From: a virus
Taxonomy: Duplodnaviria; Heunggongvirae; Uroviricota; Caudoviricetes
Length of the DNA: 64,000 nucleotides
Reading direction: 5' to 3' (one strand)
Virus record (IMG/VR): IMGVR_UViG_3300024333_000003
A program made the translations under genes and the position numbers. The notes beneath the pieces were generated by a model. The model had not been told where the DNA came from. It did not search any database and worked only from the letters and a program-made list of their open reading frames with translations. This document shows, in pieces, positions 19,851 through 57,296 of the stretch (position 1 is the stretch's first letter; each line of letters starts with the position of its first letter).

Positions 19851-20315
19851 ATGCAGAAAAACTCAAACAAGAAACAAAAAGTATCTTCGACGATAACAGT
19901 CCCGGTAAAAGTGCTATCGGATAAAGCTATATTACCAACTAAAACACATGATACAGACGCATGCTACGATTTGTATTCTGTAAAGCAAATCAGACTAGCT
20001 GCGAATGGCTTTGATGCCGTTCAGACTGGGATCGCGTTCAATATTCCAAAAGGATATTTTGGCAAAATATATGAACGCAGTGGAGTATCGTTACAACGTC
20101 CTATAACAGTGAAAGCTGGGGTTATAGATGCTGGATACACCGGTGAAGTAAAGGTGATCGTACACAATCACGGTGATTATCCAGAAATGATCGATGCTGG
20201 TACAAAATTGGCGCAAATTGCGTTTCATGCGGTACCTGACATCGAATTAGTTAAGGTAGATGAATTTAAAATCACCGCACGTGGTGATAAAGGATTTGGT
20301 AGCAGCGATCAATGA
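19851..20315 (+). CDS. dut: dUTPase
   Basis: ACYDLYS, GVIDAGYTGEVKVIVHN and C-terminal RGDKGFGSS dUTPase motifs. Confidence 0.75.
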   Translation: MQKNSNKKQKVSSTITVPVKVLSDKAILPTKTHDTDACYDLYSVKQIRLAANGFDAVQTGIAFNIPKGYFGKIYERSGVSLQRPITVKAGVIDAGYTGEVKVIVHNHGDYPEMIDAGTKLAQIAFHAVPDIELVKVDEFKITARGDKGFGSSDQ

Positions 20316-30546: not shown

Positions 30547-31158
30547 ATGACAATACATATAATTGGTGATATACATGGATTATACACAGAAATATATTTG
30601 CCTATGATCAAGAAGATTGATGGACCTTCAATTCAATTAGGCGATATGGCCCATGGATTCCCAAATACATTTTTACCTGAGTTGCCGTCTCAACATAAAT
30701 TTATCCGCGGTAATCATGATAATCCAGAACTATGTAAAACACATCCTAATTATCTTGGAGAATTTGGATATATCGAAGAATGGGATATATTCTATCTAGG
30801 GGGTGGTTGGTCGACAGATTGGGACAGTAGAATTCCTGGTGTATCTTGGTGGTATGATGAGGAACTGTCAATGCGACAATGTTATGAAGCCTTAAAATTA
30901 TACGAGGTGTCAAAACCACGAATAGTGCTTTCACATGATTGTCCGGAAATAGCAAAGATAAGTATGCTGATATATTTATACGGAAAACATGCGTATAATC
31001 AACCTTCCAGAACAAATCAATTATTGCAAGCCATGTTTGAACTTCATAATCCATCTTATTGGTGTTTCGGTCATTTCCATCATACACGAAAATTTATAAT
31101 TCACAAAACTGCCTTTCAGTGTTTAGGAAAGGCACAATACACAACAATAGAGGTTTAA
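30547..31158 (+). CDS. calcineurin-like metallophosphoesterase
   Basis: GDIHG, GD...GNHD motifs. Confidence 0.65.
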   Translation: MTIHIIGDIHGLYTEIYLPMIKKIDGPSIQLGDMAHGFPNTFLPELPSQHKFIRGNHDNPELCKTHPNYLGEFGYIEEWDIFYLGGGWSTDWDSRIPGVSWWYDEELSMRQCYEALKLYEVSKPRIVLSHDCPEIAKISMLIYLYGKHAYNQPSRTNQLLQAMFELHNPSYWCFGHFHHTRKFIIHKTAFQCLGKAQYTTIEV

Positions 31159-31160
31159 CA

Positions 31161-31877
31161 ATGCACGAACTAGTAAAAAAGGCACGAAGCTTTGCAGAGA
31201 AACGACATGCAGGACATAAATATGGTACATTGCCAGTGGATATTATAGTACATCTTGATAACGTTTATCATGTTTTAATGGAATTTGGCGAAACCGACCC
31301 ATCGATGTTAGCGGCAGGATTCTTACATGATATATTAGAAGACACAAAAACTTCGCAAGAGGAACTGCAAGAAGAATTTGGTATGATAACTACTGCATTG
31401 GTTTTAGCGGTTACTGATGGAGAAGGTAAGAATCGTAAGGAACGCAAAGAAGCAATGTACAATAAAACGGCGGGTCATTTGCGATTCACACGTTTAAAAT
31501 TAGCTGACCGTATAGCAAACATGCGGTATTCCAAGGCTGAAAAGTCTCCGCAGCTGACAATGTATATGAAGGAGTATCCAGAATTTAAAGCTCGCTTATT
31601 CTTTGCGAACGATGGTAACGAAAAAATGTGGGAAACATTAGACGCTTTAATGAAAAGTGTGATTCCACGGACATTCAAATTGAGTCGTGAAAAAGATGTT
31701 AGCGGTGTTTCTGGAAAAGGTATAGTAGGAGAAGGAGTTATATTTACAAACGGTAAATGCGTAGTAACATGGTATGGAAAAATAGCATCAGTCACTGTTT
31801 ATAACACATTCGAGGATTGTGAGCAAATACATGGACACGAAGGAGCAACAAAATTTGTATTCGATAACAAGTTTTAA
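31161..31877 (+). CDS. Rel/SpoT-type HD hydrolase (small alarmone hydrolase-like)
   Basis: RHAGHKYGTLP...HLDNV...AAGFLHDILEDT matches the (p)ppGpp-hydrolase HD domain. Confidence 0.6.
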   Translation: MHELVKKARSFAEKRHAGHKYGTLPVDIIVHLDNVYHVLMEFGETDPSMLAAGFLHDILEDTKTSQEELQEEFGMITTALVLAVTDGEGKNRKERKEAMYNKTAGHLRFTRLKLADRIANMRYSKAEKSPQLTMYMKEYPEFKARLFFANDGNEKMWETLDALMKSVIPRTFKLSREKDVSGVSGKGIVGEGVIFTNGKCVVTWYGKIASVTVYNTFEDCEQIHGHEGATKFVFDNKF

Positions 31878-32307
31878 GGACGAGTGGGAATTCTTATCAA
31901 ATTTCTATCCAGCCCCCATCACATATGATGGCGCTGAATATCCTACGGTTGAACATGCTTTTCAGGCGGCCAAAACATTGAATCCTGCGCAGCGCGAAGA
32001 AATTCGAGTTGCACCGACTCCGGGTAAAGCAAAACAGTTAGGACGAATAGTTGATCGTCGTCCTGATTGGGAACTTATAAAACAAACTGTTATGGCCCAG
32101 TTGTTGGCGGCCAAGTTCACTAATTACCCCGAATTACGAAAAAAGTTAATAGCGACGGGTAATCTTTTTCTTGAAGAAGGTAATACTTGGCATGATAATT
32201 ACTGGGGAGCATGTACGTGTGATTACTGCAAAACTCAATACAAGTATAATATTCTGGGTACGTTATTAATGACAACTAGAGTATTTTTGCAATTGGATTT
32301 GGCATGA
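31819..32307 (+). CDS. NADAR (YbiA-like) domain protein
   Basis: FLSNFYPAPI...YPTVEHAFQAAK hallmark. Confidence 0.7.
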   Translation: MSKYMDTKEQQNLYSITSFKDEWEFLSNFYPAPITYDGAEYPTVEHAFQAAKTLNPAQREEIRVAPTPGKAKQLGRIVDRRPDWELIKQTVMAQLLAAKFTNYPELRKKLIATGNLFLEEGNTWHDNYWGACTCDYCKTQYKYNILGTLLMTTRVFLQLDLA

Positions 32308-35535: not shown

Positions 35536-36411
35536 GTGGAAAATCAACAAGATGCGTTGTTAGATACTTCTAACACGTCATTGATTAACATGGCCGATAC
35601 CAGACCTATAGCTTTTTGGGCCGATAACAAAAAGAACGAATTCTTAAAAACGTTTAAAGAACGTGTTGAAGTGGCAGCGTGGTTATTGGAACATACAGCG
35701 CACGTAATTATAGATAAAGCGATTGATCGCAAATTTATAAGTAACAAACATACAAGAAATATACAATGTGTGAGTGCAGTTATTACTAATAGTAACTGCG
35801 GTTCTTTGCACGGTAGAAATTGGGATGAGTTACAAAAAATTGCCGAAGAACGTGCCAATACCGTGCTAAAAAAACTACCGATCTTAAAAAATGCCATTAA
35901 AGTAGTTGATGCAGAAACATTCAAACTATTGGAGCAATATGATAGAGATCAAAAATCCCTACAAGAAAAGAAAGATACGTTGGATGAATTGTCTGGTACA
36001 ATAGATATGAATGAGCTAGATCAAAACATGACAATCGGTGCTTTCAGAAAATATGTCAAAAAGATCGAAGCTGATCGTGCTTCATTATTGGCTCAGCTTT
36101 CACGGGAAGGACGTGCTTTGCAAGAATTAGATGTTACTATTTCTAAACGACTATATGCAGGTATTCCTGGAATATCGGAAGCTATCATTAAAGTTATAAA
36201 TCAACATTATGAACGTATCACTGCGTTGCAGGCTATGACACGGCGTGTGGAAGAGCAAGTGAAATTCGGTGACAGTGCACAAGCTCTAGAATTATTAAAG
36301 CATTTTGAAAAAGATGAGGCAATAGTTTCCGATACAGTACAGGCGGAGTTTGACGAGGCGTTGAAGAAATTAGCGTTGTATAAAAAACCTAAAACAAAAG
36401 GTAAAAAATGA
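35536..36411 (+). CDS. hypothetical protein (291 aa, coiled-coil rich)
   Basis: ORF flanked by tRNA-Lys and downstream ORFs; no motif recognised. Confidence 0.4.
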   Translation: MENQQDALLDTSNTSLINMADTRPIAFWADNKKNEFLKTFKERVEVAAWLLEHTAHVIIDKAIDRKFISNKHTRNIQCVSAVITNSNCGSLHGRNWDELQKIAEERANTVLKKLPILKNAIKVVDAETFKLLEQYDRDQKSLQEKKDTLDELSGTIDMNELDQNMTIGAFRKYVKKIEADRASLLAQLSREGRALQELDVTISKRLYAGIPGISEAIIKVINQHYERITALQAMTRRVEEQVKFGDSAQALELLKHFEKDEAIVSDTVQAEFDEALKKLALYKKPKTKGKK

Positions 36412-36637
36412 CTTATTGTTTGGATAATGATAAATTCACTGACTGCTATAAGTCCATGGTGCGCCCCACGGGATACGAACACCACAACTTCGACGCTCCT
36501 TTTCATATCACACACAAGGGTAATGTAAAAGCTTTCATACGTGGCACCACCGTAGACAGTGATGGTGAAGTGTGTAAGAGTAATGCCATTATTGAGCATA
36601 ATTGGTTATATAATACACAAATAATAAGGATAAAAAT

Positions 36638-38035
36638 ATGAACTACGGGTTATACACAGATATGTATCAACTTGTTATGGCACAAGGATATTTCCAGATG
36701 AGCCGCCATAATGACCGAGCCACGTATGATTATTTTTATCGACGTAACCCATACGGCGGCGGTTATGCATTATTTGCCGGATTAAGTGAGTTGTTAGATA
36801 TCTTAAAGAATTGGAAATTTACCGAAGAAGATACAACGTATTTATTTCATCAAGGAATTTTTCACGCAGGCTTTTTGAGTTATTTACGTGACTTTCAATT
36901 CAAAGGCGATATCTATTCTGTGCGTGAGGGCGAAGTTGTTTTTCCAAATGAACCTATACTGCGAATTGAAGGTGGTTGGCTAGAGTGTCAATTATTAGAA
37001 ACTCTGTTGCTCAACATTATCAACTTCAGTACATTGATCGCAACTAAAGCAGCACGTATAAAACAAGTTGTAAACGAACGACCTATAATTGATATGGGAT
37101 TACGACGTGCACAGGGGTTGGGAGGTATTTTGGCGAGTAAAGCCGCTATTATTGGTGGTGCAACTTCAACTTCTAATGTTTATGCCGCAAAGAAATACGA
37201 TCTCTTAGCGGTAGGTACAATGGCTCATGCCTGGATACTTGGTTTTGAAAACGAGTTAACTGCATTTCGTGCGTTTGCTAAAGAATATCCGCACAACACA
37301 GTGTTGCTAGTTGATACTTATGATACATTAAAAAGTGGTGTGCCGAATGCAATAATCGTAGCTAAAGAACTTGAAGCCAACGGATGTAAATTACATGGTA
37401 TCCGATTAGATAGCGGCGACTTTGCGTACCTAAGCAAAAAAGCAAGAAATCTTCTTGATGAGGCCAATTTGTCTTATGTAAAAATAGTTGCATCTAATCA
37501 ATTAGATGAATATGTAATTCGTAGTCTAGAAGAACAGGACGCTCCTATTGATATTTATGGTGTAGGCACAAATTTAATTATCGGTGCTGGCGCTGGAGCT
37601 CATGATGGTGTATATAAACTATCATCGATTCAAGGACAGCCGAAAATGAAATTTTCAGATAATCCTGAAAAAGCTACATTACCCGGACCAAAAGATCTGT
37701 ATCGTTATTATAATAACGACGGCACTTTTTATGGCGACGGTATTACTTGCGCAGGAATGCCTCCACCGAAGAAGTTGTATGATCCTGTTTATCCAGATAG
37801 ATTATCAGATGTTGGAGATCTAAAAAACGAAGCGCTTTTAATAAAGTGCGTGGAAAATGGAAAGGTTGTAATAACTAATCCTATCGTACGTACATCAAGA
37901 CTTTATGCGGAAAGTCGTCTGCAGAGCTTAGGAAAAGAATTCACTAGATTTGAAAACCCACATATCTATAAAGTAGGTGTAAGTGATATATTACTTAAGC
38001 ATAAAACAGATATGATTGCCGCACTTAGAAAATAA
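36638..38035 (+). CDS. nicotinate/nicotinamide phosphoribosyltransferase (PncB/NadV family)
   Basis: 465 aa; N-terminus TDMYQLVMAQGYF and overall length match the NAPRTase/NAMPT family. Confidence 0.6.
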   Translation: MNYGLYTDMYQLVMAQGYFQMSRHNDRATYDYFYRRNPYGGGYALFAGLSELLDILKNWKFTEEDTTYLFHQGIFHAGFLSYLRDFQFKGDIYSVREGEVVFPNEPILRIEGGWLECQLLETLLLNIINFSTLIATKAARIKQVVNERPIIDMGLRRAQGLGGILASKAAIIGGATSTSNVYAAKKYDLLAVGTMAHAWILGFENELTAFRAFAKEYPHNTVLLVDTYDTLKSGVPNAIIVAKELEANGCKLHGIRLDSGDFAYLSKKARNLLDEANLSYVKIVASNQLDEYVIRSLEEQDAPIDIYGVGTNLIIGAGAGAHDGVYKLSSIQGQPKMKFSDNPEKATLPGPKDLYRYYNNDGTFYGDGITCAGMPPPKKLYDPVYPDRLSDVGDLKNEALLIKCVENGKVVITNPIVRTSRLYAESRLQSLGKEFTRFENPHIYKVGVSDILLKHKTDMIAALRK

Positions 38036-38062
38036 ATTTTACGAGCCGAAGTATATCGTTAT

Positions 38063-38105
38063 CAAAGAACTGTGTGTCGTAGGTCCGAATCCTACTCTCT
38101 CCACC
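38063..38105 (+). pseudogene. tRNA 3' half (anticodon-stem 3' strand, T-arm, acceptor 3' strand and discriminator)
   Basis: ACUGU-GUGUC-GUAGG-UCCGAAU-CCUAC-UCUCUCC-A-CC. Acceptor and anticodon-stem strands are complementary to the 5' half at 38206-38237. Confidence 0.5.
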
Positions 38106-38205
38106 CTGAAAGATAGTTGGTCCCTTTTGTTGAATGATTAAATTCATTTTATGGTATAGGACATGACAATATAAAAGAAGCCTCCTATAACTATCTTTCT
38201 GGTTG

Positions 38206-38237
38206 GGAGAGATAGCTCAGTCGGTAGAGCAACAGTA
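38206..38237 (+). pseudogene. tRNA 5' half (acceptor 5' strand, D-arm, anticodon-stem 5' strand) located downstream of its cognate 3' half
   Basis: GGAGAGA-UA-GCUC-AGUCGGUA-GAGC-A-ACAGU, then no T-arm follows. Pairs with 38063-38105. Confidence 0.5.
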
Positions 38238-38375
38238 TAAAGATGGTATATGACCATTTGCTCGTAATTTAATTTTATTATGGCTCATTCTCTAAGGTAA
38301 GCTGTAACGAGCACGCTTCAGCCATAGATAGCTATCTATGTTAAATCAAAGCACGCATATGGAATGAGTTATTTC

Positions 38376-38447
38376 AGGGCGTTCGGTTAATTGGTAAACC
38401 AACGGTCTCCAAAACCGTGACTACGGGTTCAAGTCCTGTACGCCCTG
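38376..38447 (+). tRNA. tRNA-Trp (CCA)
   Basis: Anticodon arm ACGGU-CUCCAAA-ACCGU; acceptor AGGGCGU/ACGCCCU. Confidence 0.75.
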
Positions 38448-38611
38448 CTATGAAATATCACTTATATGAAGAAAAAACTGTGTGTTGTGGAACAACAGTC
38501 ATACGGAAATTAAGTGCCAACATTTGTTGTAATTGTCGTAAAATTTTAACTCTTTCAGATACTTATATTACTTTAGCAGTACGTAAATTCACATTAACAA
38601 AAAGAAAAGAT

Positions 38612-38684
38612 GTCAAGTTGGCCGAGTGGTTAAGGCATAGGTCTGCAAAACCTATATGCGTCGGTTCGAATCCGACACTTGACT
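38612..38684 (+). tRNA. tRNA-Cys (GCA)
   Basis: Anticodon loop CUGCAAA; T-arm GUCGG-UUCGAAU-CCGAC. Confidence 0.75.
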
Positions 38685-38712
38685 CATGTAAAACTAATTA
38701 GGACATGATTTT

Positions 38713-39813
38713 ATGGGACGAAAAACTATTAGCCGACTGCAAGAAAAAATGCGTAGGCTAGCTTCATTCGATAACACGCTAAAAACATATAAATCGGTCA
38801 AACCAGCAAAAAGTAAAAAACTCACTGGTGAAGAAGTATATAAATTGATGCCAGCTTTGACAAATTATTCGAAATTTTTCATAAATAATCTTTCTTTATG
38901 GAAATGTCCATCATATAATACAGATCGGCAGAAAACCAGTCTCATACGATTTTTGCTTTTTAAATATCCGGTACATGATATGTTTATCAATGCTTTCTTA
39001 ACTACCCCAAAAGAAATAAATACGTTCGTTCAAGAACTATTCTATTGGGCGATAGATCTCGGCCAAGGGCGCTCTATAAAAGATCGAGTGAAGGGAATAT
39101 TTACGGCAAAAGAGCTGCATTGGTTTTTAAACGGGCCTAAAAATAACGTGTTCTACAACAGTTGGTATGCAAAATGTAGGGCGCGTCATTGGCCTACTAA
39201 TCTAATTAATTCGTTTGCCAACCGGTTAGGTCCATTTCCTATACATGATTGGAAAGAAGTTGCTTATTGGGACAAAATAATACAATTCTTTACAAACTAT
39301 TTGGAAGAGTTGGACTCGGATATGTTATCTGAACTGTTGGATTTTATAAAATATGCCCATGACTACGAAAATTTTCAAATTGAGGGACGTACATTATCGT
39401 CCCTTATACGATTTTCTAATCGTTGGCATATGGGTCGTAGATTAACCGGCAAGTCAATTATTGAAGGCACATGGATGCCAATGAATATCCCGACATGGGA
39501 ATATTATGATAAGGTCACGAAGATACATTGGAAGATTCATCAGTTATTGACCGGAAAAGATCTTGCATATGAAAGTAAGATACAACACCATTGTGTATGG
39601 TCGTATTCTCAGGCATGCGTGCGTGGACAAAGCAGAATATTCACTTTGCATAGTATCGATGGGATAGGCGACGAACGAAAGCATCTTACCATAGAAGTGT
39701 CTCCACAAGATAAAATGGTCAGACAGGTCCGTGGAAAATTAAACCGTAGGGCGACCAACGGAGAAAGAAATATTTTGTACAAATGGATTGATCAGTATAA
39801 ACTAATTTATTAA
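38713..39813 (+). CDS. hypothetical protein (366 aa)
   Basis: ORF with RBS-like GGA upstream; no motif recognised. Confidence 0.4.
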   Translation: MGRKTISRLQEKMRRLASFDNTLKTYKSVKPAKSKKLTGEEVYKLMPALTNYSKFFINNLSLWKCPSYNTDRQKTSLIRFLLFKYPVHDMFINAFLTTPKEINTFVQELFYWAIDLGQGRSIKDRVKGIFTAKELHWFLNGPKNNVFYNSWYAKCRARHWPTNLINSFANRLGPFPIHDWKEVAYWDKIIQFFTNYLEELDSDMLSELLDFIKYAHDYENFQIEGRTLSSLIRFSNRWHMGRRLTGKSIIEGTWMPMNIPTWEYYDKVTKIHWKIHQLLTGKDLAYESKIQHHCVWSYSQACVRGQSRIFTLHSIDGIGDERKHLTIEVSPQDKMVRQVRGKLNRRATNGERNILYKWIDQYKLIY

Positions 39814-39820
39814 GGATAAA

Positions 39821-40411
39821 ATGAAACCTACTGAAATAATTGTTGTAATCGATCGCTCGGGATCGATGTCTGGATTTGTGGCTGACACAATAGGTGGTTA
39901 TAACACATTTATTGATGAGCAGAAAAAACTCCCTGGCGATGCAAAAATAACTACTGTTTTATTTGACACTGAATATGATGTATTTGAAGATGGTGTAGAA
40001 TTGCAAAAAGCTGTACCACTTTCACGTATATCTTATGTGCCAAGAGGCAATACTGCATTGTTAGATGCCATTGGTGATGCCGTGAAACGCGTTGAGGATC
40101 GTCAAGCAAAACTTCCGGACGATCAAAAAACTGATCACGTGATTATGGTAATCATAACCGATGGGCAAGAAAACTCAAGCGTGAGGTTTTCGAAAGATCA
40201 AATTAAAGATATCATTACGGCAAAAACAGCGCTTGGATGGAAATTCGATTTCTTCTCAGCAAATATGGATGCTATAAATGATGCTACACGTTCATATGGA
40301 TTTGATAGCAAAAACGTATTGTGTTTTGCAGCAAACACAGATGGTTTTCAGAAGAGTTATAAGTCAATGAATATCTCTACAAGTAATTATCGTTTGGACA
40401 AAGATTCATAA
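39821..40411 (+). CDS. von Willebrand factor type A domain protein
   Basis: MIDAS motif IVVIDRSGSMSG and ...ITDGQENSS. Confidence 0.65.
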   Translation: MKPTEIIVVIDRSGSMSGFVADTIGGYNTFIDEQKKLPGDAKITTVLFDTEYDVFEDGVELQKAVPLSRISYVPRGNTALLDAIGDAVKRVEDRQAKLPDDQKTDHVIMVIITDGQENSSVRFSKDQIKDIITAKTALGWKFDFFSANMDAINDATRSYGFDSKNVLCFAANTDGFQKSYKSMNISTSNYRLDKDS

Positions 40412-40420
40412 TGTCCAAAT

Positions 40421-40494
40421 GCGGGTATCGCCTAGTCGGTATGGCACCACGCTTCCAACGTGGAATAAGGCCGGTTCGAGACCGGTTACCCGCT
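40421..40494 (+). tRNA. tRNA-Gly (UCC)
   Basis: Anticodon arm CCACG-CUUCCAA-CGUGG. Confidence 0.8.
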
Positions 40495-42110
40495 CTATGG
40501 AAACAATAAAAAAAGCATTGCAGCAGCCATGCAAACGATGTAATGAGGTTAAACTTGCATATATTTCGGCAAGATGTAAAGACATGTGTTTCTTTATTAC
40601 GTATCAAGACTCTTACGAAACTGTAAACGAGTTTAGTAGTTTTGAAAGTTACCCACCAAGGGATGTAGGTTTAATGGGGGATGGTGATAACGTAACATTT
40701 ATTTATTGTCTAAATTGTGGACAAATACAAGGACAATTTCCAGTATGACCTACACAATATATTTAAATTGGTGGTATGGTTCCCAGGAAGAGGAATCAGT
40801 GTTAAATCGCAGCGGTTATCCCGTACGCACAGAATTCCAGACTGACGAAGATCCATTCGAGATTGCGAGAAAATTATATGCAAACAATGTGACTGTTGTT
40901 ATACATAAAGTACAAGAATTATATCATGGGTCGAAATATGTAATTTCGGTATGTGATGATTCTAGACCAGGACAAAGATGAGATCCATCGTTTTTCATTT
41001 TCCAACTGAATTACCATATAATGCAATCAGATATGAATTAAAATGTGATTGGGGTTTGTATTACAAATGTCGCACACAACAAGAATTTGAACAATTAGAT
41101 CCGCACCTGATAATACAAGAAGGTTGTTTGATTCAGGCAATAGGTATTGATGATAATGTTATTGCAAACTGGCACTATGAGAAGAACAAATGGATAAAAA
41201 ATTAGAATTTGTTTGTTATTTTCGGTATACAAAATGGTATTTTATCAGTTTAGGACTTCATTTGAGTTTAAAACCATTTAATATTGAAATACATTTACCT
41301 GCAGGATTTATACGTATAGGAGTGGAAGAACGATATCCAACAGCACCGATAAATTGGCAAGAATGTGATAAAAAGTGTTTTGGAAAAAGAATAACATATT
41401 CTCTAAACGAAAAAGAACTAGTTACTAAACTACACGCGTTTATTCTTGTGCAAGATTCTCTGTCTTCAATAAAGGACGCGCGAAAACGTCATAGCGATGC
41501 TATGGAACTATTGCATAGATATAAAATGCTAGAACGGGAATATTTACAAAATAAATATTCTGTGCCCAATGAGTTAATAACTGCAAAGAACTTTTTACTT
41601 AGAGACGAACTAGGAGTACAAATTTGTCAAACTTAAAAGACGATATCGATTTACCATTGGTAAAAACCATTGCTTATTTAAACTTATTAGGTATCAAAAC
41701 ACTTTGGTCGTGTTGCGGATATAATTATCCTGAACAACCTGCGCATAAGGCGCACCAAATCGGTCAAATAAATATTTCAATGGAATTTTCTGATAAGGCG
41801 GCCTCAGTCGGTATTTATATTTTACAACTTAATTATGAATGGGCTTTAAAATGTCAATTAGTGAATCCTGCTCCATTACGAGCATATATTATATATAGTG
41901 ACATTAAAAGATTTCATCCTAATTGGGATGAAAACTCCGTACATTATCATGAGCATCCTTCACAGATGATTAATGGGTTGGAAAAGCGTTTGTATAAACT
42001 AAAGGATCAATTTATGGATGAAGTAGTATTAACTGATACAAACCACGCATCAAAACAAGCAAATCCCTATTGGGCTTATCCAGGGAGTGATCCATGGGTT
42101 ATACGAAAAA

Positions 42111-42458
42111 ATGATTTTATTTGTTGATGATGAAAAACAACCGGAGTGGTTTGATTTAAACCGCACCAATATTCATGTAGCCACAACATTTGAAGATGCG
42201 TTGAAATTAATTCAGAAAAATGTATATGACATTATTTACATGGATCATGATCTTGGAGATAGTTGTCATGATGGTTCTCATTTAATAACCGAATATGGCA
42301 AAGCAGGTAAGTCAATACAAAAAGTTTGTTGTATTTCGTGGAATCCACTTGGAGTAGAACGAATACGACTTGCTTGTAAAGATTTTAATATACCTTTCGA
42401 ATCACATGGTATGCGTATATTTGATTTGTTTCCAGTTATAGATGGACAATCTCACTAA
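42111..42458 (+). CDS. stand-alone CheY-like receiver domain protein
   Basis: MILFVDDEKQ...DIIYMDHDLGD acidic pocket pattern. Confidence 0.45.
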   Translation: MILFVDDEKQPEWFDLNRTNIHVATTFEDALKLIQKNVYDIIYMDHDLGDSCHDGSHLITEYGKAGKSIQKVCCISWNPLGVERIRLACKDFNIPFESHGMRIFDLFPVIDGQSH

Positions 42459-42851
42459 ATTTTCAACTTTTATAAAGGATCACATATATGAAAACATATT
42501 TTAATAAGATCAAATTATTTAAAAGTAATTCTGACAGCCCGGAAAAAATATTAAAAGAAGTAACTGAATTTGCAGCTACTCAAAATATTTCGGCACATAG
42601 CTTAGGTGTGGAATATGTAGAACCCCTTGATCAACTAATTATCAGTTTGGGATACAGAGAAGAAGACGATCCCACATCGATAGAAATAATTCAACATACT
42701 ATCGGAAATATATCAACCAACAGTTTGGCTGAGCTGGAGAGTAACTTTAAAAAGATACTTGATACTTTTGAAAAACCTATCTGTCATGAATTTTTCGTAA
42801 ATAACGCTTTCGATCTTATCGGAATCTTTATGATAGAAAAGTAATAATTAG

Positions 42852-42925
42852 GCGGTTGTCGCATAGAGGCCTAGTGCGTCTGCTTGCCATGCAGAATCTC
42901 GTGGGTTCGAATCCCATCAACCGCT
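42852..42925 (+). tRNA. tRNA-Gly (GCC)
   Basis: Anticodon arm UCUGC-UUGCCAU-GCAGA. Confidence 0.8.
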
Positions 42926-43371
42926 CTATGGTTCAAATAATATATGTATTTCTCGCAGCATTTGTGCTCGGCTTTTTATATTCATATTATATACGACGCA
43001 CAGCACATGCGCAAACTTTAAAAAAACAACTACAAGCGGCAAGCTCCGGTTCAGTATTATATTTGCTTGGCGCGGTAATTGTTATATCATATGTAAGTGA
43101 CCCTTGGCTATTAATTCCCGCCTGTGTGGGGGATTGGCTAGGATCCCTACTACAACTAAGGATCGATATGAATAAAGAACAATACGAAGAAAACTTAAGA
43201 CGAATCCAAAAACAACATTTGGAAAATATTCAAAAACATACACATTGGCAGCCATGCATGCACGACCAATGTACAGAATGTCATGGTACTGGTATGAAAC
43301 TAGATGGGACTCCCTGTGTACACGGTATAAGTTGCCCATGCCCAAAATGTAGTCCACGATGTAACACCTCC

Positions 43372-43446
43372 ACCCTCGTAACTTAAATGGAATAGAGTCA
43401 GTCCCTCCTAAGGACTTGTGTGTGGGTTCGACTCCCATCGAGGGTA
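43372..43446 (+). tRNA. tRNA-Arg (CCU)
   Basis: Anticodon arm AGUCC-CUCCUAA-GGACU. Confidence 0.7.
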
Positions 43447-43449
43447 CAT

Positions 43450-43523
43450 GCTCCTATAGCTCAATTGGATAGAGCGCTTCGCTACGAACGAAGAGGTTGT
43501 AGGTTCAAGTCCTATTAGGAGTA
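43450..43523 (+). tRNA. tRNA-Arg (ACG)
   Basis: Anticodon arm CUUCG-CUACGAA-CGAAG. Confidence 0.8.
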
Positions 43524-44098
43524 CTATGATAGCACAATTACTATTTCAAATACTACAGTTTATAGCTATTTCACTTTTTGACTTGTGGCAAATGGCTAAA
43601 AAAGAATTATTATATTGGGAAGCAATAATGGATACATTACCGTTTTTACCTCCCGACGTTGAAGAAGATACATTAATACTAAAAAACACTGCATCAGAGA
43701 ATATATCTGTGGGCCAATTTATATTTTGGTTTGCTGAAGTCGCATTAATGTTAATATTCTGGAGTGGTTATACATTTGTATCGCTTGTAATGTTTCTATG
43801 TACGGTATTTTTATTCTATGCGGGGGTTGAAGACTTAATGTTCTTTTTGTTTTCTCGTTGGATAAAATTACCGGAAAGTTGGTGGCGCTCTCGAGAAGTT
43901 ATTCACATTCTAGGATTTCGTTTACCAAAATATATGCCTTGGTTACCAAGAACGCGCCAAATCGGAAAGTTAAAAATACCTAGTTATTGGATGAAATTTT
44001 TCGGCGGAGAGGTTGGTGATACCGTTGAATTATATAAAGGTGGAATTATTGCTTGGATATTAGTTATTGCTATAATAAGTTTGGTATAAGATAATTAT

Positions 44099-44172
44099 AC
44101 CCCTATAGTCTAATTGGATAAAACGTCGCGCTTCGGACGCGAATAGTGCGGGTTCGAGTCCTGCTGGGGGTA
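44099..44172 (+). tRNA. tRNA-Arg (UCG)
   Basis: Anticodon arm UCGCG-CUUCGGA-CGCGA. Confidence 0.75.
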
Positions 44173-44711
44173 CATGTTTAAGGCATATGAACAAATAGAA
44201 TTAGCAGTTATTACTACCGCTGCTATAAAAAAATTATTCTTTGACGATTACTCAACTCTCACTTTCACAATCAAACCTATGGAACAACATATAACAGATA
44301 TAGAAAATTTTATACACAATGCTACAACAGACAAATGTGTAGAATTGTTAAGGACGTTGTCCAAAGATATAGAACTTGCTATTAAACCGGACGCCATACA
44401 TGTTAAACTGAGGGCGTTGGCGCTAGAAATGGATTTAGAAGATTACCGAAAATTATTATTAACACAGTTACTCAATTCAATGGCCGCCGTAAAAAGCAAA
44501 TTACATACTAATTTGGGAATTAAAGAATGAGAAAAATAACAGTAGAAAAAGCAGATAATACCAGACATTGTCATAAATGTCAAGCAAAGATAATAAAAAA
44601 TGAAAAATTTGTACTTTGCACTAATGATGCTTATATACCTGTTTATTGTAATATTTGTTCAATTTGTATGACAAATCTAACTAATAAGGTGCTCGGATTA
44701 AAAAATTAACT

Positions 44712-45926
44712 TTGTACCAAAAAAGCAAAACAGGAAAAATTAAAGTATTAGAATTCTGGACTGTAAAAGAAAAATTCTATACTCGTTGGGGGCAATTAAA
44801 CGGTAAACAGCAAGAAACTGTGAAGGTATGTGTGGGAATGAATATCGGTAAAGCTAATGAAACTACACCTGCAGAGCAGGCATTGGCAGAGATGGAAGCC
44901 AAGATCGTAATTAAGAAAAAAGAAGGTTACGATACAAAGATGCCTTCAGTTACCTCATCAATAGTGCAAACTGTTATTGATCTGGATAATATACCAGAAG
45001 CATTTTGTCCTAATAAACCTATATCTAAAACACCACAATCAATTATTGATGGTAAAAATACGTATGGACAAAGAAAATTCGATGGGCATTGCTTATTCTT
45101 GGTTAAAGGCAAAACTACCGAAAAAGTATTTTCACGTCGTATGGAAGATCGTACAGACGTATTAATACAGTTACCGCCTATAAAAAAATTATTGGCTATA
45201 CTACCAAGTGAAACGTTTTTATTAACCGAATTTATATATTATAACAACACAACAAAACGTGAATCGCCTAGACATGTAGCGCAGGTTGTTCGTAAAGATG
45301 ATGCTGCGGAGGCTATATCGCGTTATAACGAGTTATCAAAAGATGGACAATTCAACTGTATCCCCTTCGATGTCCTATTCTTCAAAGGAGATTTTGTCGG
45401 AAATAGAGAATATACTAAACGATTCGAATTACTCAAATCTATCAATATCAACGTGCCCCCCATATACACAGATTGGAAGGAGCTACTTCAATTTGCCGAA
45501 GAAGAAAATTGGGAGGGTTTTGTCCTTCGTGTGCCAGGTGAGAAATCATATATCTCTTATACAATGGATGGAGAAGCACATCGAGCGGGAAGTTATAAAT
45601 ACAAATTTCTCAAAACTGATGACTTTTTTGTCACAGAATGGCTTAAGGGAAAATCCGGAAAACACGCCAATTTTTATGCGAAGTTTGCTGTGGCACAATA
45701 CGACTCCAAAGGCACCATTATCGATCGTGGATATGTCGGCCCTGGTAAACTAACTCACGATGAACTAGCACAACTTACAAAGGATCTAAATTCTGGTAAA
45801 GTAAAAAAGAACTTTGTAATCGAAGCTGAATATCAGGATATTCAAGATTCTGGAAAATTACAGTTTGGAATAATTCAGCGACTACGACCAGATAAAATAC
45901 ACACAGAATGCGTGGTTGAAGAATGA
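44712..45926 (+). CDS. ATP-dependent nucleotidyltransferase ligase (DNA or RNA ligase)
   Basis: KFDGHC (motif I KxDG), EGFVLRV (motif IV), YKYKFLK (motif V). Confidence 0.6.
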   Translation: MYQKSKTGKIKVLEFWTVKEKFYTRWGQLNGKQQETVKVCVGMNIGKANETTPAEQALAEMEAKIVIKKKEGYDTKMPSVTSSIVQTVIDLDNIPEAFCPNKPISKTPQSIIDGKNTYGQRKFDGHCLFLVKGKTTEKVFSRRMEDRTDVLIQLPPIKKLLAILPSETFLLTEFIYYNNTTKRESPRHVAQVVRKDDAAEAISRYNELSKDGQFNCIPFDVLFFKGDFVGNREYTKRFELLKSININVPPIYTDWKELLQFAEEENWEGFVLRVPGEKSYISYTMDGEAHRAGSYKYKFLKTDDFFVTEWLKGKSGKHANFYAKFAVAQYDSKGTIIDRGYVGPGKLTHDELAQLTKDLNSGKVKKNFVIEAEYQDIQDSGKLQFGIIQRLRPDKIHTECVVEE

Positions 45927-46086
45927 ATGGAAAACGAGCTAAGGCTTTGCGTAAGAAAGCCTATAAAATAACAAAAGATGCGCCTTGGGTAGAATATTAC
46001 GATAAAAAATCAGTTCCATTAGTAATGAAACCCACTTGCACAAGAAAAGTGTATCAACTATTGAAAGCCAAATAATTGGCTTTCTT

Positions 46087-46173
46087 GGAGAGTGTCCGGT
46101 TTGGTCGAGGAACCAATCTTGAAAATTGCGCGCGGCATTATGTCCGTCTGGGGTTCGAATCCCTAACTCTCCG
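46087..46173 (+). tRNA. tRNA-Ser (UGA), class II
   Basis: Acceptor GGAGAGU/ACUCUCC, anticodon loop CUUGAAA, long variable arm. Confidence 0.75.
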
Positions 46174-46177
46174 CATA

Positions 46178-46266
46178 GGAAAGTCTGACCTCATTGGTGC
46201 GGGGCCTGGTCTCGAAAACCAGTAGGCGTGTAGTGCGCCATAGGAGTTCGAATCTCCTACTTTCCG
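46178..46266 (+). tRNA. tRNA-Ser (CGA), class II
   Basis: Anticodon arm CUGGU-CUCGAAA-ACCAG. Confidence 0.75.
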
Positions 46267-47006
46267 CATGAGACAATATCTTATTATAAAAACTAAAACA
46301 AATGGTATAGTGGCAATAGTAGCCTCGGAAAATAATGTATTACGTGTAGTATTTGCATATACTAATAATTTAAGAATTGCGTTGGAAGAGACTATTAAAC
46401 ATGGTCTACATAAAAGAAGATTCGTCACGAAAACTAAATTGATAACTATTAATGCATCACCAAAAGACGCCGACTTTTTGAAAAAGCTAAAACAATATTT
46501 AATATTGTCGTTTGATTATGACGTAAAATTAATGGAGATAAAAAATGAACATATACAGCATGACGACAGAAAACATGACTGAGTTTGCAAACCAAGTAAA
46601 GGAAGTGCTTGTTAACAATCTATTAGAAAATAAAGTTATAACTAAAGAACAACATGCACTCGTATCAGAAGATTATTGTGTAGTAGTTACACCTAAAGAC
46701 ATATTAGGACGAGTTTTTGATAAAGTACGAAATCGGAAAGATACAGAAAAGCTACTAATAACTGTTTTAAAAGGACAGCATGTAAAATGAGTACATTGTT
46801 GGCTACATTTCATAAACCAATAAATTGTCGGGCGATAAATCCAAAATTCCAGGACGAAGAATCTGCAAAAGTGATTGCAATACAAACAGAAACGGGCACC
46901 GACAAAAATGGTACATTAAATATTTATACTTCATATTTAGTAGTATTTCATAATATGAATTTGTGGATGGATAGCATAGAAGTTAAACTGCAACCTTAAA
47001 ATAAAA

Positions 47007-47088
47007 GCGCAAATGGTGGAACTGGCAGACACACCATCTTGAGGGGGTGGCGGAGAAATCCATAAGGGTTCGAGTCCCTTTTTGCGCA
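47007..47088 (+). tRNA. class II tRNA, probably Leu (GAG)
   Basis: Acceptor GCGCAAA/UUUGCGC, anticodon arm CCAUC-UUGAGGG-GGUGG (one G-U pair), long variable arm. Confidence 0.55.
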
Positions 47089-47641
47089 CAATCATAAACT
47101 AAATAAAAAGGTATATTATGGAAAGCAAAAGATTGTTATTTCAACGTGAAATAGAAACATCTATCAACGATATTCGGGATTACAGTGATTTTATATTTGC
47201 AGTTGGTTTGGATATAAAGGAACTCACACCAGAGGTGTTGAAACTAGATATTATACCAACAATGATAATTTCAACATCCGCGTTTAACGCATTGGCCAAA
47301 ATGAATATCCCAAAAGATTTTCTGGATAAATTAAAACAGGCTTCAATGTATACTTGTCCTTGGACTGAAAATACGTATTTCGGTACATTACCGATAGCAG
47401 TGGCAACATTTAATAAAAACAATTATAAAGACTTATTAACGGATTATCAATTAGACACCGAATTTCATCTCAGTATGAATGGCGGCGATGTTAAGAAATT
47501 ACTTATTCCAAACCTTGTAGAATTATCATTTATAGGGCATGGTTATACGTCTGCAACACTTCCCAGCGATGGTTCCCATACACTAGTACTTTGTACGATT
47601 GAATTACCTAATAAAGATTTTGCTATCTGTTTAACTTATGC

Positions 47642-48355
47642 ATGGCACAACAAATGATCAGAATATTTCAAGTTGGTGGTAGTGTTAGAGATTTAATATT
47701 ACGCGTTAAGTCAAAAGATATTGATTATGCAGTAGTAGCAGTTTCTTGGGAAGAAATGAGAAATTATATTCTTGCCAAAGGCAAAATATATCTCGAGACC
47801 CCAGAATACTTCACTATCCGTGCTCATATAGATGGTTTTGGTGATGCTGATTTTGTGTTATGTCGAAAGGATGGTAACTATTCAGACGGTCGTAGACCTG
47901 ATACTGTTGAGTTGGGCACATTGTATGACGATCTAGCCAGACGTGATTTCACAATGAATGCTATTGCGATCGACATGCAAGATCCAAAGCGTCCTTTTAT
48001 TGACCCGCATGGTGGGTTGATTGACATACAAAATAATCTCATTAAATGTGTTGGTAAGCCCGAAGATCGCTTCAATGAAGATGCTTTACGCATGCTACGC
48101 GCGTTAAGATTTGCCGTAACCAAAAAAATGCAGATCGACTTATCAGTAGAAGCATGTTTTGGTAATCGTGAGTTATTAAACAAATTGAATAATCGTATTT
48201 CTTGGGAACGTAAAAAAGACGAATTGTTTAAAATGTTCAAAACAAGTACAACACGAACTTTTGAATTGTTTGATCGATACCCATCAATGCGCGACGTATT
48301 ACTTTCTGATGACAAACCTTTGTGGCTTGAACCAACTTTACGAGCACGCCCATGA
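47642..48355 (+). CDS. tRNA nucleotidyltransferase (CCA-adding enzyme head domain)
   Basis: GGSVRD...DID nucleotidyltransferase motif, RRDFTMNA, EDALRMLRALRF. Confidence 0.7.
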   Translation: MAQQMIRIFQVGGSVRDLILRVKSKDIDYAVVAVSWEEMRNYILAKGKIYLETPEYFTIRAHIDGFGDADFVLCRKDGNYSDGRRPDTVELGTLYDDLARRDFTMNAIAIDMQDPKRPFIDPHGGLIDIQNNLIKCVGKPEDRFNEDALRMLRALRFAVTKKMQIDLSVEACFGNRELLNKLNNRISWERKKDELFKMFKTSTTRTFELFDRYPSMRDVLLSDDKPLWLEPTLRARP

Positions 48356-48918
48356 AACTAGGAATATTTGGTGGCAGTTTTGATCCGCCGCACGCTGGAC
48401 ATTTATGGTTGTGTAGAAGTGCTCAGGAATTATATCATTTGGATAGTATAGCTATGGTGCCTAATGCGCTTTCTCCATTAAAGGATCATAAACATACAGA
48501 AGCTCATCATATAGTCGCTATGACACGATTAACGGCGTTCGAATGCGAAAGTACTTATTGTGATACAACAGAGATTTGCCGTGATAAGGTATCATATACT
48601 ATAGACACTGTAAAATTATTTAAAGATCATTATCCAGAAGATGATTTATATTTGCTGTTAGGTGGTGATTCATTATTAGATTTTTACCGTTGGAAGGACC
48701 CTAATGAACTTGTAGAGATTATCGGGCACGAACATATTTTAGTGGCTGAACGAAGTACTGCACCTCTGATGGCACATAAGTTTCGGTCGCTACCTATGCC
48801 CTACATACAAGTGAGTTCAACGGATATTCGTAATCGAATAAAAAATCATTTGACAATAAAAGGATTAGTAGTTGATTCGGTGCGTGAATATATAATCGAA
48901 CGTAAGCTGTATCTATAA
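48352..48918 (+). CDS. nicotinate/nicotinamide mononucleotide adenylyltransferase (NMNAT/NadD-like)
   Basis: GGSFDPPHAGH (T/HxGH) motif. Confidence 0.75.
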   Translation: MKLGIFGGSFDPPHAGHLWLCRSAQELYHLDSIAMVPNALSPLKDHKHTEAHHIVAMTRLTAFECESTYCDTTEICRDKVSYTIDTVKLFKDHYPEDDLYLLLGGDSLLDFYRWKDPNELVEIIGHEHILVAERSTAPLMAHKFRSLPMPYIQVSSTDIRNRIKNHLTIKGLVVDSVREYIIERKLYL

Positions 48919-48922
48919 TTAT

Positions 48923-48996
48923 AGAGCTATCGTACAATTGGTTTAGTACACAAGACTTTGGATCTTGGAATCGGAGTTCGAATCTCTGTAGCTCTG
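48923..48996 (+). tRNA. tRNA-Gln (UUG)
   Basis: Anticodon arm CAAGA-CUUUGGA-UCUUG. Confidence 0.8.
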
Positions 48997-49003
48997 CATT
49001 TTT

Positions 49004-49076
49004 TGGGATGTAGTTCAATTGGTGGAACGTCAGTCTCTGGAACTGAATGATAAAGGTTCGAGTCCTTTCATCCCAG
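49004..49076 (+). tRNA. tRNA-Gln (CUG)
   Basis: Anticodon arm UCAGU-CUCUGGA-ACUGA. Confidence 0.8.
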
Positions 49077-50125
49077 CGTATGAAACAAATTTTATATTAT
49101 GAAATGGACTACATGGAATTTGATAAATTAGTTAATAAACATATTCCAGCGTTTAAAGGTGATTACGAATTTGTGGCCTGTCATGAAGCAAATAATTATG
49201 CAGCATATACTTTTAATGTTGAAATGCCTAAAGATGACAAGTCATATTTAGATATTGAGCGTAAAATCCTATTAGGAGAAGATCGATATACGCGTTATAT
49301 ATTAATGTATTTGGTAAAACTCGGTGTACTGGCGCCAGGAAATTATTTAATAAACGTATTTTGGTAATTGCAAAAGATCGTCTAATATGAATAAGACAGC
49401 GGAGTACATCCGCTAAATAGTAGATTCAAAACCTACCTTTTGCTTCATGTATAATTTTAAACGTGGTGATAAGGTTGTAGATATATTAGACGGTCAGAAA
49501 GGCATTGTTATGCGTTATGCTTCTGAAGACCGTGATAATTATACTTATGTACAAGTAAGATGGGAAAATGGTGATACAACAATAATAAGAGAAATGGAAT
49601 TAGTATATGATAAACACTAAACAATCCTGCGGCGAAGCAAAGGCTACAAACATAATGGAAGGTAGTTTGTATAAACTGCAGACATTACAAGATGAAACAC
49701 AGGCAATAATTAACACGATCGCAGAAAAAACCGAGTCAATTCGGCAACAATTGCCGAAGGAAGCTATATTGGATATGGGATGCAATAAAGGTATAAATAC
49801 TTCAAAAATACAAAATATACTACAAGATCGTATTAGTCAACAAGATCTTATCGTAAAATTATTGCAGGAATTACTTTCAGAGTTAATTATATAATACAAT
49901 ACATAGAATACGAGTATAGACGAACTGGAAAATTTCTCGTAGCGTAGAGTCACTCCATAACGCCCAGATATACACGGAATCTGGGGTCGCGGTCAAAGCC
50001 CTAAATGCAATGCATACCTGAGTCCAGTTAGGCTGTAATTAGATAATGGTTATAATTACAATTGACAGGCCAATAGGGAGGAGAAAACCTTTTCACGGTG
50101 ACATCGGAAATCCGTGACTATGTGT

Positions 50126-52949: not shown

Positions 52950-53700
52950 TGCCCATTAACCTTATTGGTTAGCTATGAACAATCATAGTACTGTTCGCCA
53001 GAACTGCATTCCAGAATGATTTAGGTTAATTGCGAAAGCCCCTGGAACAGGGGAGTCCTACGCATACTTACCCGTCGTAGGTGAGCCTGTCTAATTATGG
53101 GTTAGACCCAGGGTCGATCCAAAAGGTAAGCTCGATCGAAATTAACTATTGTCTGCGTGGCCGAGAACGAAATAAGCACTAGTCTCTAAAACTAGTTACA
53201 CGGGGTCGTTCCCCGTCGCAGACACTTATTCCTCTGTGGTGAAATGAAAAGAGATGTATATTTGTTACGTATTAATATACATTACTAAGTCACTAGATTG
53301 AATTAGTAGGTGACAGCATCGAGTTACCAGTATAGACTGTTCTTTATGGTCAAGTTCAGAGCAAGTGTATTGGAAGAATAACTAGGATGAAGCGATTAAA
53401 CCAATTGTCATGCGACGAACGTTTAGTTGCGTAGCGGCTGAATATTCAATTGAAAATTAGAATGGGATCTTTACTACTCCCTGTCGAACGCTTACAAACG
53501 GAACTGACTGTCAGTAGACTAAAAGTAATGCTGCAGGTTTGAGTCCTGCCAGAGGGATAAATTTTTATCCGGACGGCGTATTATTCTCTCGACGCCTAAT
53601 AAATATGGGGAGATTATCAGTCCTGTCATAAACAATTCCGCTCAATGAGCACCGGAGCCATTTGATAGGACTTTTGCATTATATATGGCTCCGCCACGAT
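52950..53700 (+). ncRNA. group I intron-like ribozyme core in an ORF-free region
   Basis: P4-P6-like UUAAUUGCGAAAGCCCCUGGAACAGGGGAGUCCUACGCAUAC (~53024-53065). R-like CAGUAGACUAAAAG (~53515-53528) and S-like AUUAUCAGUCC (~53609-53619) can form P7. Confidence 0.45.
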
Positions 53701-57227: not shown

Positions 57228-57296
57228 TTCACAAGTAATCAAAAATTTCGGGCAACCGTCAGTAATCCTGGCGGTTGCTCTAATTCAAGGAATAAA

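Follow-up and report, generated by a model that had tools for sequence, protein, structure and literature searches.

The window, i.e. the whole 64-kb stretch of DNA that was analysed, carries two genes of pyridine nucleotide metabolism, designated as pncB and nadD. These genes and the two open reading frames (ORFs) immediately upstream of nadD are as follows:

36638..38035, plus strand: pncB, ATG start, 465 aa; assigned by Pfam, NCBIfam, PDB matches, and motif alignment
47118..47657, plus strand: ORF of 179 aa abutting the CCA gene; no Pfam or PHROG match
47642..48355, plus strand: head domain of a CCA-adding tRNA nucleotidyltransferase, 237 aa; PolyA_pol 2.7e-20 (Pfam), PHROG tRNA nucleotidyltransferase 4e-44
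48352..48918, plus strand: nadD, ATG start, 188 aa; assigned by Pfam, TIGR00482, PDB matches, motifs, and synteny

A previous sequence-only reading had placed a 465-aa phosphoribosyltransferase and an adenylyltransferase at the positions of pncB and nadD, respectively. Both ORFs are intact with exactly these coordinates and are not chance ORFs. The gap between the two genes is 10,316 nt, in agreement with the earlier estimate of approximately 10 kb, and contains approximately 19 ORFs and 9 tRNA genes. The pair is not an operon. A scan for sigma-70 promoters and terminators was uninformative, and promoter-like sites were fewer than in shuffled sequences.

The 465-aa protein has the three-domain layout of PncB. 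The NAPRTase_N domain (8e-43, 146 bits), the NAPRTase barrel (2e-10, 41 bits), and the NAPRTase_C domain (2e-17, 64 bits) all scored above the gathering scores of Pfam. The protein passed the NCBIfam equivalog models NF006695 (597 bits, cutoff 469) and TIGR01513 (547 bits, cutoff 297), while it scored 21 bits with NF006629 (cutoff 405), which we take to be a Nampt-like family. The score with the nadC model was 18 bits (cutoff 198), which speaks against the quinolinate phosphoribosyltransferases that the sequence-only reading had named as the competing assignment. The best solved structure is PncB from E. faecalis (PDB 2F7F, 9e-105), and human NAPRT (4YUB) matched with 4e-70; the PDB matches are all NAPRTases, with no Nampt chain among them. 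The match to the phage Nampt PHROG was weak (62 bits). Among the matches listed, NAPRTase Pfam domains are present in 120 of 120 homologs, and those with a name are all labelled nicotinate phosphoribosyltransferase by their sources. Invariant columns in an alignment of phage and bacterial homologs (A2) are GTMAH (H197), RLDSGD (R256–D261), and GVGT (G308–T311). We take H197, the histidine of the GT-x-AH motif, to be the phosphorylated residue, and the catalytic and PRPP-site roles in PncB are likewise assumed here. Based on the HMM scores, the PDB relatives, the PHROG score, and the invariant motifs, the protein is a PncB predicted to be nicotinate-specific, and is neither NadV/Nampt nor NadC. 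Of the former label “PncB/NadV-family”, the first name was therefore retained and the second was dropped. The predicted reaction is the ATP-coupled conversion of nicotinate and PRPP to NaMN.

The 188-aa protein starts with MKLGIFGGSFDPPHAGH, and GGSFDPPHAGH occupies residues 7–17. It matched CTP_transf_like in Pfam (1e-17) and passed the NCBIfam equivalog TIGR00482 (139.7 bits, cutoff 112.45), a model with the title “nicotinate (nicotinamide) nucleotide adenylyltransferase”. The NadR-type NMNAT model of NCBIfam gave 17 bits. All 17 PDB matches are NadD enzymes, the best of which is B. subtilis NadD (1KAM, 1.5e-27). No PHROG family was matched, and a Nudix domain is absent from the 188 residues (Pfam). 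The motifs GGSFDPPHAGH (HxGH), SYTIDT (SYTxDT), W114, and SSTDIR (SSTxxR, residues 155–160) are kept, and the loss of catalytic residues that the earlier reading had allowed for is not seen. Substrate specificity in the solved NadD structures is achieved mainly via main-chain contacts, and a minor activity on NMN is known for certain NadD enzymes. The protein is a predicted NadD-type nicotinate-mononucleotide adenylyltransferase of the NaMN-preferring type, and its predicted reaction is NaMN + ATP to NaAD. It had been described as a “GGSFDPPHAGH NMNAT”; the motif was correct, while the enzyme type is that of NadD.

The stop codon of the CCA gene overlaps the start codon of nadD (ATGA). The gene for the CCA-adding enzyme keeps its place upstream of nadD in the relatives and is regarded as context, not as an NAD enzyme. 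The order of the CCA gene followed by nadD is kept in six related contigs. In L023, L093, and L094 the two genes overlap or lie close together, and at least one small ORF separates them in L095, L096, and L097. This tight linkage of nadD to the tRNA CCA-adding enzyme, and not to pncB, could point to another role. Most relatives also have an isochorismatase-family gene (153–190 aa) upstream of the CCA gene, between the latter and a homolog of the 179-aa ORF; it is missing in the window. The isochorismatase keeps residues aligned with an Asp and a Cys of E. coli PncA that are presumably catalytic in the latter. Its assignment as PncA was unsupported, as the segment that binds metal in E. coli PncA is missing and the PncA profile gave E = 0.002. 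The 179-aa ORF itself was considered as a diverged nicotinamidase and rejected. It is a homolog of a different conserved ORF, namely the 173-aa ORF located before the isochorismatase gene in L094 (49% identity).

Other enzymes of NAD+ synthesis were searched for in the window, 10 kb to its right (L012), and 4.4 kb to its left (L098), i.e. ~78 of ~215 kb. The Pfam scan of the window, which took plausible ORFs of at least 57 aa, detected no NAD synthetase, nicotinamidase/isochorismatase, Nudix, PRPP-synthetase-like, PnuC, NadR, or Nampt protein. NadE and PncA were also searched for by phmmer with the E. coli proteins and with profiles built from phage and E. coli sequences; neither was found in the window, the fetched loci, or the 10 kb on the right, and the gene table of the 4.4 kb on the left lists no NAD-pathway family. 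NadE is also absent within ±10 kb of pncB or nadD here and in five relatives, and the ±10-kb regions of relatives likewise gave no PncA, Nudix, or Prs/Adps. Neither Adps/Prs-like nor Nudix genes were found in the window or its flanks of ~14 kb, and the use of ADP-ribose-derived precursors, as previously proposed, is not supported. As far as can be seen in the inspected sequence, the phage supplies only the conversion of nicotinate via NaMN to NaAD, which makes up the first two steps of the Preiss-Handler route. Because PncB and NadD end at NaAD and no NadE was found, the output of NAD+ would need host NadE. Similarly, the use of nicotinamide would need host PncA because no nicotinamidase was found. 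The pair can feed NAD+ synthesis and cannot rebuild NAD+ alone. The earlier claim that NAD+ is rebuilt from nicotinamide or nicotinate is thereby narrowed to a predicted path from nicotinate to NaAD.

The window is phage DNA, not bacterial DNA. Identical PncB and NadD proteins are encoded on metagenomic contigs of 215,016 and 215,168 bp, and the phage is therefore a jumbo phage (>200 kb) of ~215 kb. The window contains 37 tRNA genes over 23–61 kb, including a suppressor with a CTA anticodon. Its replication and recombination genes encode AAA_24, DUF669, RecU, and PolB-exonuclease-like proteins and a helicase interrupted by a LAGLIDADG ORF. Genes for class II RNR, dUTPase, dCMP deaminase, peptide deformylase, an RF-1-domain protein, Hsp20, ATP-dependent DNA ligase, and an ABC importer are also present. 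The ~40 kb around nadD hold the 37 tRNAs together with RNA ligase, SpoU methylase, cREC_REC, metallophosphatase, HD, and NADAR genes and the second of two CCA-enzyme-like genes (CCA/HD). The large minus-strand ORFs of the window matched no family and presumably encode structural proteins. Two further genes are referred to below:

20312-22435: class II RNR-like gene with an RNR-II insertion domain
31059-31877: HD_4 phosphohydrolase, HD-Acb5-like fusion; the C-terminal 70 residues match phrog_7499 and the precomputed Pfam assignment is PF26761 (Acb5)

Megablast of positions 36000–49500 against GenBank phages gave no match, and no near relative was found there. In a tblastn search of the same set with PncB, the sole clearly genuine match was gp277 of Bacillus phage G (41.7%); most of the other matches were short “phage” records resembling host contamination. 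NadD gave no convincing tblastn match among GenBank phages. Pattern scans of IMG/VR for PncB returned one relative only, and a scan of GTDB genome contigs for exact matches gave none.

Related proteins were found in other phage contigs. Four phage homologs of PncB (P0002–P0005) are 62–74% identical to one another and 62–67% identical to PncB of the window, while this clade shows at most 59% identity to anything outside it among the matches listed. The identity of the window PncB to the best cellular homologs among the matches listed is 52–59% (52–56% when genome contigs were searched by tblastn and as much as 59% when proteins were searched). A matching NadD clade was recovered with a two-sequence profile; the support for both clades is a comparison of identities within and outside the clade. 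PncB and NadD are encoded on one contig in JBINOA010003477.1 (215,066 bp) and Ga0378408_0000214 (132,155 bp) and in a single locus in Ga0598260_0000019 (130,334 bp), and those of Ga0619418_12358142 were paired solely because each comes from a 99,355-bp contig. The spacing between the two genes is ~8–12 kb in all four relatives. At least four jumbo phages that are related but diverged thus keep the pair. The window NadD is 40–45% identical to the other phage NadDs. The retention of both genes as pairs across such divergence in PncB (62–67% identity) and NadD (40–45%) indicates long-term purifying selection on both. The derived residues GH-x-W-x-CR and VPN are common to the window NadD, L023, and other phage NadDs, and from these shared residues we read the window protein as a probable fast-evolving ortholog rather than a replacement.

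The closest cellular PncBs (best 80) are from Balneolaceae, Marinilabiliales/Prolixibacteraceae, and Ignavibacteriaceae, with identities of 52–56% by tblastn, and the host is probably a bacterium of the Bacteroidota/FCB group. In 51 of the best 80 cellular loci pncA is located directly downstream of pncB, while nadE was found within 6 kb of pncB in none of them and nadD in one. This arrangement suggests that the hosts likely possess PncA and can turn nicotinamide into nicotinate, and they would also have the essential NadD and NadE. Since the bacterial loci are mostly pncB-pncA, the phage lineage appears to have kept pncB without its usual partner. The enzyme families and motifs are the same as those of the bacterial pncB-pncA operon with nadD and nadE; in contrast to the bacterial loci, pncB of the phage is placed among tRNA genes and has no pncA. 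The likely presence in the hosts of PncA and, by inference, NadD and NadE makes a boost in flux, or an escape from regulation by the host, more likely than the complementation of a missing host pathway. The closest cellular homologs suggest that the host has a PncB of its own, in which case the phage PncB would be redundant rather than complementary.

Phage gene sets for NAD+ synthesis have been described in several forms. A complete salvage or Preiss-Handler pathway was reported in 174 of 668 gut jumbo phages, termed NAD-jumbo phages, including the pncB-nadD-nadE cluster of Kuafu_71, and the hosts are Bacteroidota; the authors call their own conclusions bioinformatic only (Li et al., 2024, Microbiome, PMC11662467). 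The phage described here is similar to these in its size of >200 kb, its probable Bacteroidota-type host, the presence of pncB and nadD, and a role predicted bioinformatically. In contrast to the definition of Li et al., which requires all genes of the pathway, mostly in one cluster, nadE was not found here in ~78 kb. Unlike the Kuafu_71 cluster, pncB and nadD lie 10 kb apart in a tRNA/RNA-repair block, and nadD is coupled to the CCA gene. An IMG/VR scan also identified at least 8 contig families with PncB-like, NadE, PncA, and NadD genes within a few kb, some of which are possibly host DNA. In the ~78 kb inspected, the pair is an incomplete, dispersed variant of the already described phage Preiss-Handler gene sets.

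The NARP2 system of Vibrio phage KVP40 is an operon of Nampt and Nmnat, the latter with a Nudix domain in KVP40, that converts nicotinamide via NMN to NAD+ (10.1101/2024.02.11.579819). It was shown to defeat the Thoeris, DSR, and SIR2 systems (Osterman et al., 2024, 10.1101/2024.02.11.579819). The window pair and NARP2 both combine a type II phosphoribosyltransferase with an adenylyltransferase of the nucleotidyltransferase fold, and in both PRPP and ATP drive a pyridine base towards NAD+. Unlike NARP2, the window pair is predicted to start at nicotinate, to end at NaAD, and to need host PncA and NadE. The phosphoribosyltransferase is a PncB by HMM, PDB, and homolog annotation and is not of the Nampt clade, and its partner is of the NadD type without Nudix instead of an NMN adenylyltransferase. 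Because both of these defining features differ, the pair is not NARP2. NARP1 consists of Adps and Namat with ADPR-PP and nicotinamide as substrates (10.1101/2024.02.11.579819), and NARP3 consists of PnuC and NadR and uses imported nicotinamide riboside (PMC13464706). If the window pair acts in this manner, it would resemble NARP1 and NARP3 in restoring NAD+ instead of inhibiting a defence protein; the enzymes and substrates are unrelated, and no Adps/Prs-like protein, PnuC, or NadR is encoded in the window. NARP1, NARP2, and NARP3, i.e. every phage NAD+ synthesis module tested, overcome NADase defences (10.1101/2024.02.11.579819; PMC13464706). The precedent of a NadV and NMNAT pair that had been invoked for this locus is accordingly real as regards phage NAD+ synthesis as counter-defence, while NARP2 uses nicotinamide and NMN and belongs to the wrong branch.

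On balance, it is likely that the two acquired Preiss-Handler enzymes, aided by host PncA and NadE, keep up the NAD+ pool of the infected cell. In this process, PncB would form NaMN from nicotinate and PRPP at the expense of ATP, and NadD would adenylate NaMN to deamido-NAD (NaAD). Host NadE would amidate NaAD to NAD+, and host PncA would return the nicotinamide freed by NAD+ cleavage to nicotinate. In E. coli, PncB limits the flux through nicotinate salvage, and unregulated phage copies of two steps would increase the flux from pyridine base to NAD+ during infection. Depletion of NAD+, caused either by ordinary turnover once the host is shut off or by defence effectors of the NADase type, would thereby be blunted. 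The two enzymes very probably work as predicted. Given working enzymes, general NAD+ maintenance has close to an even chance of being the main selective benefit, and counter-defence may be the main benefit with a chance somewhat below that. Resistance to NADase defences and support of a long infection are both plausible and were weighted roughly equally. Points against host-assisted maintenance are the distance of 10.3 kb between the genes without an operon and the missing NadE, PncA, Nudix, and Prs/Adps. A more far-reaching proposal is a host-dependent fourth phage route of NAD+ reconstitution (“Preiss-Handler NARP”), in which PncB and NadD with host PncA and NadE outrun NADase effectors and the isochorismatase-CCA-NadD block of the relatives ties pyridine recycling to the tRNA-repair island; we regard it as tentative and rather doubtful.

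Several other explanations were weighed against host-assisted maintenance of NAD+. The pair might work like NARP2, with the phosphoribosyltransferase converting nicotinamide to NMN and the adenylyltransferase converting NMN to NAD+ from NADase products without host help. The type II phosphoribosyltransferase fold common with Nampt, the 62-bit match to the phage Nampt PHROG, the TIGR00482 title naming both nucleotides, and the minor NMN activity of some NadDs are consistent with this, and NARP2 is proven for KVP40 (10.1101/2024.02.11.579819). However, scores of 547–597 bits with the PncB models in comparison with 21 bits for the Nampt-like model, PDB matches that are all NAPRTases, the NAPRTase domains of all 120 listed homologs and the uniform naming of those that are named, the 17 bits for NadD with the NadR-type NMNAT model, the absence of a Nudix domain, and the non-operonic arrangement make it very improbable. 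Alternatively, NadE and perhaps PncA could be encoded in the remaining ~130 kb, which would give an autonomous pathway of the NAD-jumbo phage type. The inspection covered ~78 kb of the ~215-kb genome, and both the pncB-nadD-nadE clusters of jumbo phages (Li et al., PMC11662467) and the four-gene IMG/VR contigs are examples of such sets. Nevertheless, complete sets elsewhere cluster within a few kb, and no NadE was found within ±10 kb of either gene here or in five relatives; we thus consider a complete pathway unlikely.

The conserved CCA-NadD order with its close or overlapping junction in related contigs and the tRNA/RNA-repair genes around nadD raise the possibility of an RNA-centred module of NadD and the CCA enzyme (with the isochorismatase in relatives), which would provide NAD+ for Tpt1-type repair or an RNA-linked nucleotide substrate and not serve the bulk pool. 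Relative L096 encodes Tpt1 (PTS_2-RNA) 9 kb upstream of pncB. Nonetheless, Tpt1, a 2'-phosphotransferase of NAD+-dependent RNA repair, was found neither in the window nor in the covered parts of the other relatives, NadD passes the NadD equivalog model with all NaMN/ATP-site motifs kept, and the adjacency of phage genes may be mere synteny; extra ORFs are inserted between the CCA gene and nadD in L095, L096, and L097. Such a module has a small chance of being correct, slightly above that of a NARP2-like pair. NaMN is also the substrate of CobT, and PncB could make NaMN for a use other than NAD+, such as activation of the lower ligand for the B12-dependent class II RNR, a candidate gene for which is present at 20312-22435. 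Neither cobT nor other cobamide genes were detected in the window, and the co-conservation of NadD points to the NAD branch, which leaves this as the least probable of the explanations. The chance that both genes are recently captured passengers without an adaptive role is hardly greater. PncB is 54–59% identical to genes of FCB-group bacteria and jumbo phages accumulate host-like genes, but both genes are kept with intact motifs across lineages at 62–67% (PncB) and 40–45% (NadD) identity, and NadD shares its phage-specific derived residues with L023.

Among the outcomes in which bacterial immunity against phages ends, depletion of NAD+ is one of the most common. Of the phage routes for rebuilding NAD+, three are proven, and none of them runs via the nicotinate (Preiss-Handler) branch. 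The main value of the pair described here is as a candidate Preiss-Handler route of NAD+ reconstitution. A clade in which just the two middle enzymes were found offers a clean natural test of whether PncB and NadD provide a boost against NADase defences or metabolic support in a long infection. For annotation, a phage pair of “PRTase + NMNAT” needs typing (PncB or Nampt; NadD, NadM, or NadR) before it is labelled as NARP2.

The HD-Acb5-like gene (31059-31877) adjoins the NADAR gene ~5 kb upstream of pncB. The Acb5 family cleaves cGAMP and acts against CBASS (10.1101/2025.07.12.664507). Because of this fusion beside NADAR, anti-defence genes may share the block with pncB. The precomputed annotation “Anti-Pycsar Apyc1” for 14004-14753 was unconfirmed (15 bits, cutoff 50). 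In relative L096, an MBL gene annotated as Apyc1 is located beside pncB.

The most distant relative that carries both PncB (nicotinate phosphoribosyltransferase) and NadD (NaMN adenylyltransferase), the 130-kb contig L096, also encodes Tpt1/KptA (PTS_2-RNA), an RNA 2'-phosphotransferase that consumes NAD+, and, directly after PncB, an MBL protein annotated as Anti-Pycsar Apyc1. Unlike in L096, neither Tpt1/KptA nor Apyc1 was found in the window. In L096 and in the related phage loci L093, L094, L095 and L023, an isochorismatase-family gene lies directly upstream of the CCA-adding tRNA nucleotidyltransferase and NadD genes; this gene is deleted in the window phage. The relatives' protein keeps residues aligned with the catalytic Asp and Cys of the E. 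coli nicotinamidase PncA, and is without the metal-binding segment of PncA.

Genes of related phages.
L096 719-1243 and 11987-12823: Tpt1/KptA (PTS_2-RNA) and Apyc1-annotated MBL protein
L093 8659-9120, L094 8863-9333, L095 8390-8962, L023 1-351, L096 17722-18216: minimal isochorismatase-family hydrolase

On IMG/VR viral contigs of 14-254 kb, genes for a PncB-like protein, NadE (NAD synthetase), PncA and NadD occur within a few kb (L057, L060/L061, L066, L071, L079, L083, L084/L085 and L086/L087/L089). These clusters are complete Preiss-Handler salvage sets on putative viral contigs; those of L086/L087/L089 gave no PncA match.

Genes of the window.
7602-8249, 8256-9116, 9358-9924 (+): apparent helicase gene pieces around a LAGLIDADG homing-endonuclease ORF
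11781-12848 (+): partial CCA-adding-enzyme-like gene, 355 aa, matching only PolyA_pol RNA-binding and HD domains
14004-14753 (+): MBL-fold protein, Anti-Pycsar_Apyc1 in the precomputed Pfam annotation
31059-31877 (+): HD_4 phosphohydrolase, C-terminal ~70 residues matching phrog_7499
31819-32307 (+): NADAR-domain gene, its start overlapped by the HD_4 gene
35536-36641 (+): 291-aa coiled-coil-like ORF and 77-aa ORF, joined to PncB by overlapping stop/start codons
47642-48355 (+): partial CCA-adding-enzyme-like gene, 237 aa, head domain only
53151-53225 (+): tRNA with anticodon CTA (amber suppressor), labelled Pyl by ARAGORN
55437-58873 (+): ABC importer (binding protein, permease and ATPase)
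62944-63153 (+): 69-aa protein with C-terminal ...TLGG, abutting the ThiF/E1-like gene on its upstream side
63154-63759 (+): ThiF/E1-like protein (PF00899)

The two ORFs upstream of PncB are kept in the closer relatives L016 and L018 and not in L096. The precomputed Pfam annotation assigned PF26761 'Acb5' to the HD_4 gene. Acb5 is an anti-CBASS family that cleaves cGAMP (10.1101/2025.07.12.664507). An HD-Acb5 fusion could process the 2',3'-cyclic products of Acb5. In L016, Acb5 is a separate 88-aa protein and is not fused. A direct scan scored the window MBL-fold protein at only 15 bits, where the cutoff is 50, and left its Apyc1 label unconfirmed.

The 596-aa importer binding protein has an OmpA-like domain at its C-terminus, and its N-terminal part is NMT1-like in relatives. 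The importer is kept in L093, L094 and L095; a vitamin or pyridine precursor as its substrate is only a guess. The 69-aa protein and ThiF, the latter kept in L093, L094 and L097, look like a phage-encoded ubiquitin-like protein/E1 pair.

Nearly every amino acid is served by the 37 tRNA genes, which do not form a single array: over ~38 kb (23489-60996) they lie between protein genes, alone or a few together. TAG is the stop of only 5 of the 85 predicted genes, and the four of these that lie on the + strand all have a further in-frame stop within 15 codons. This pattern is consistent with read-through of TAG, either tolerated or stage-specific. The two partial CCA-like genes may together form a split CCA/repair enzyme. 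The homing-endonuclease ORF appears to split the helicase gene (7602-9924). DNA polymerase A is present as two ORFs in the right flank (L012 12209-14278).
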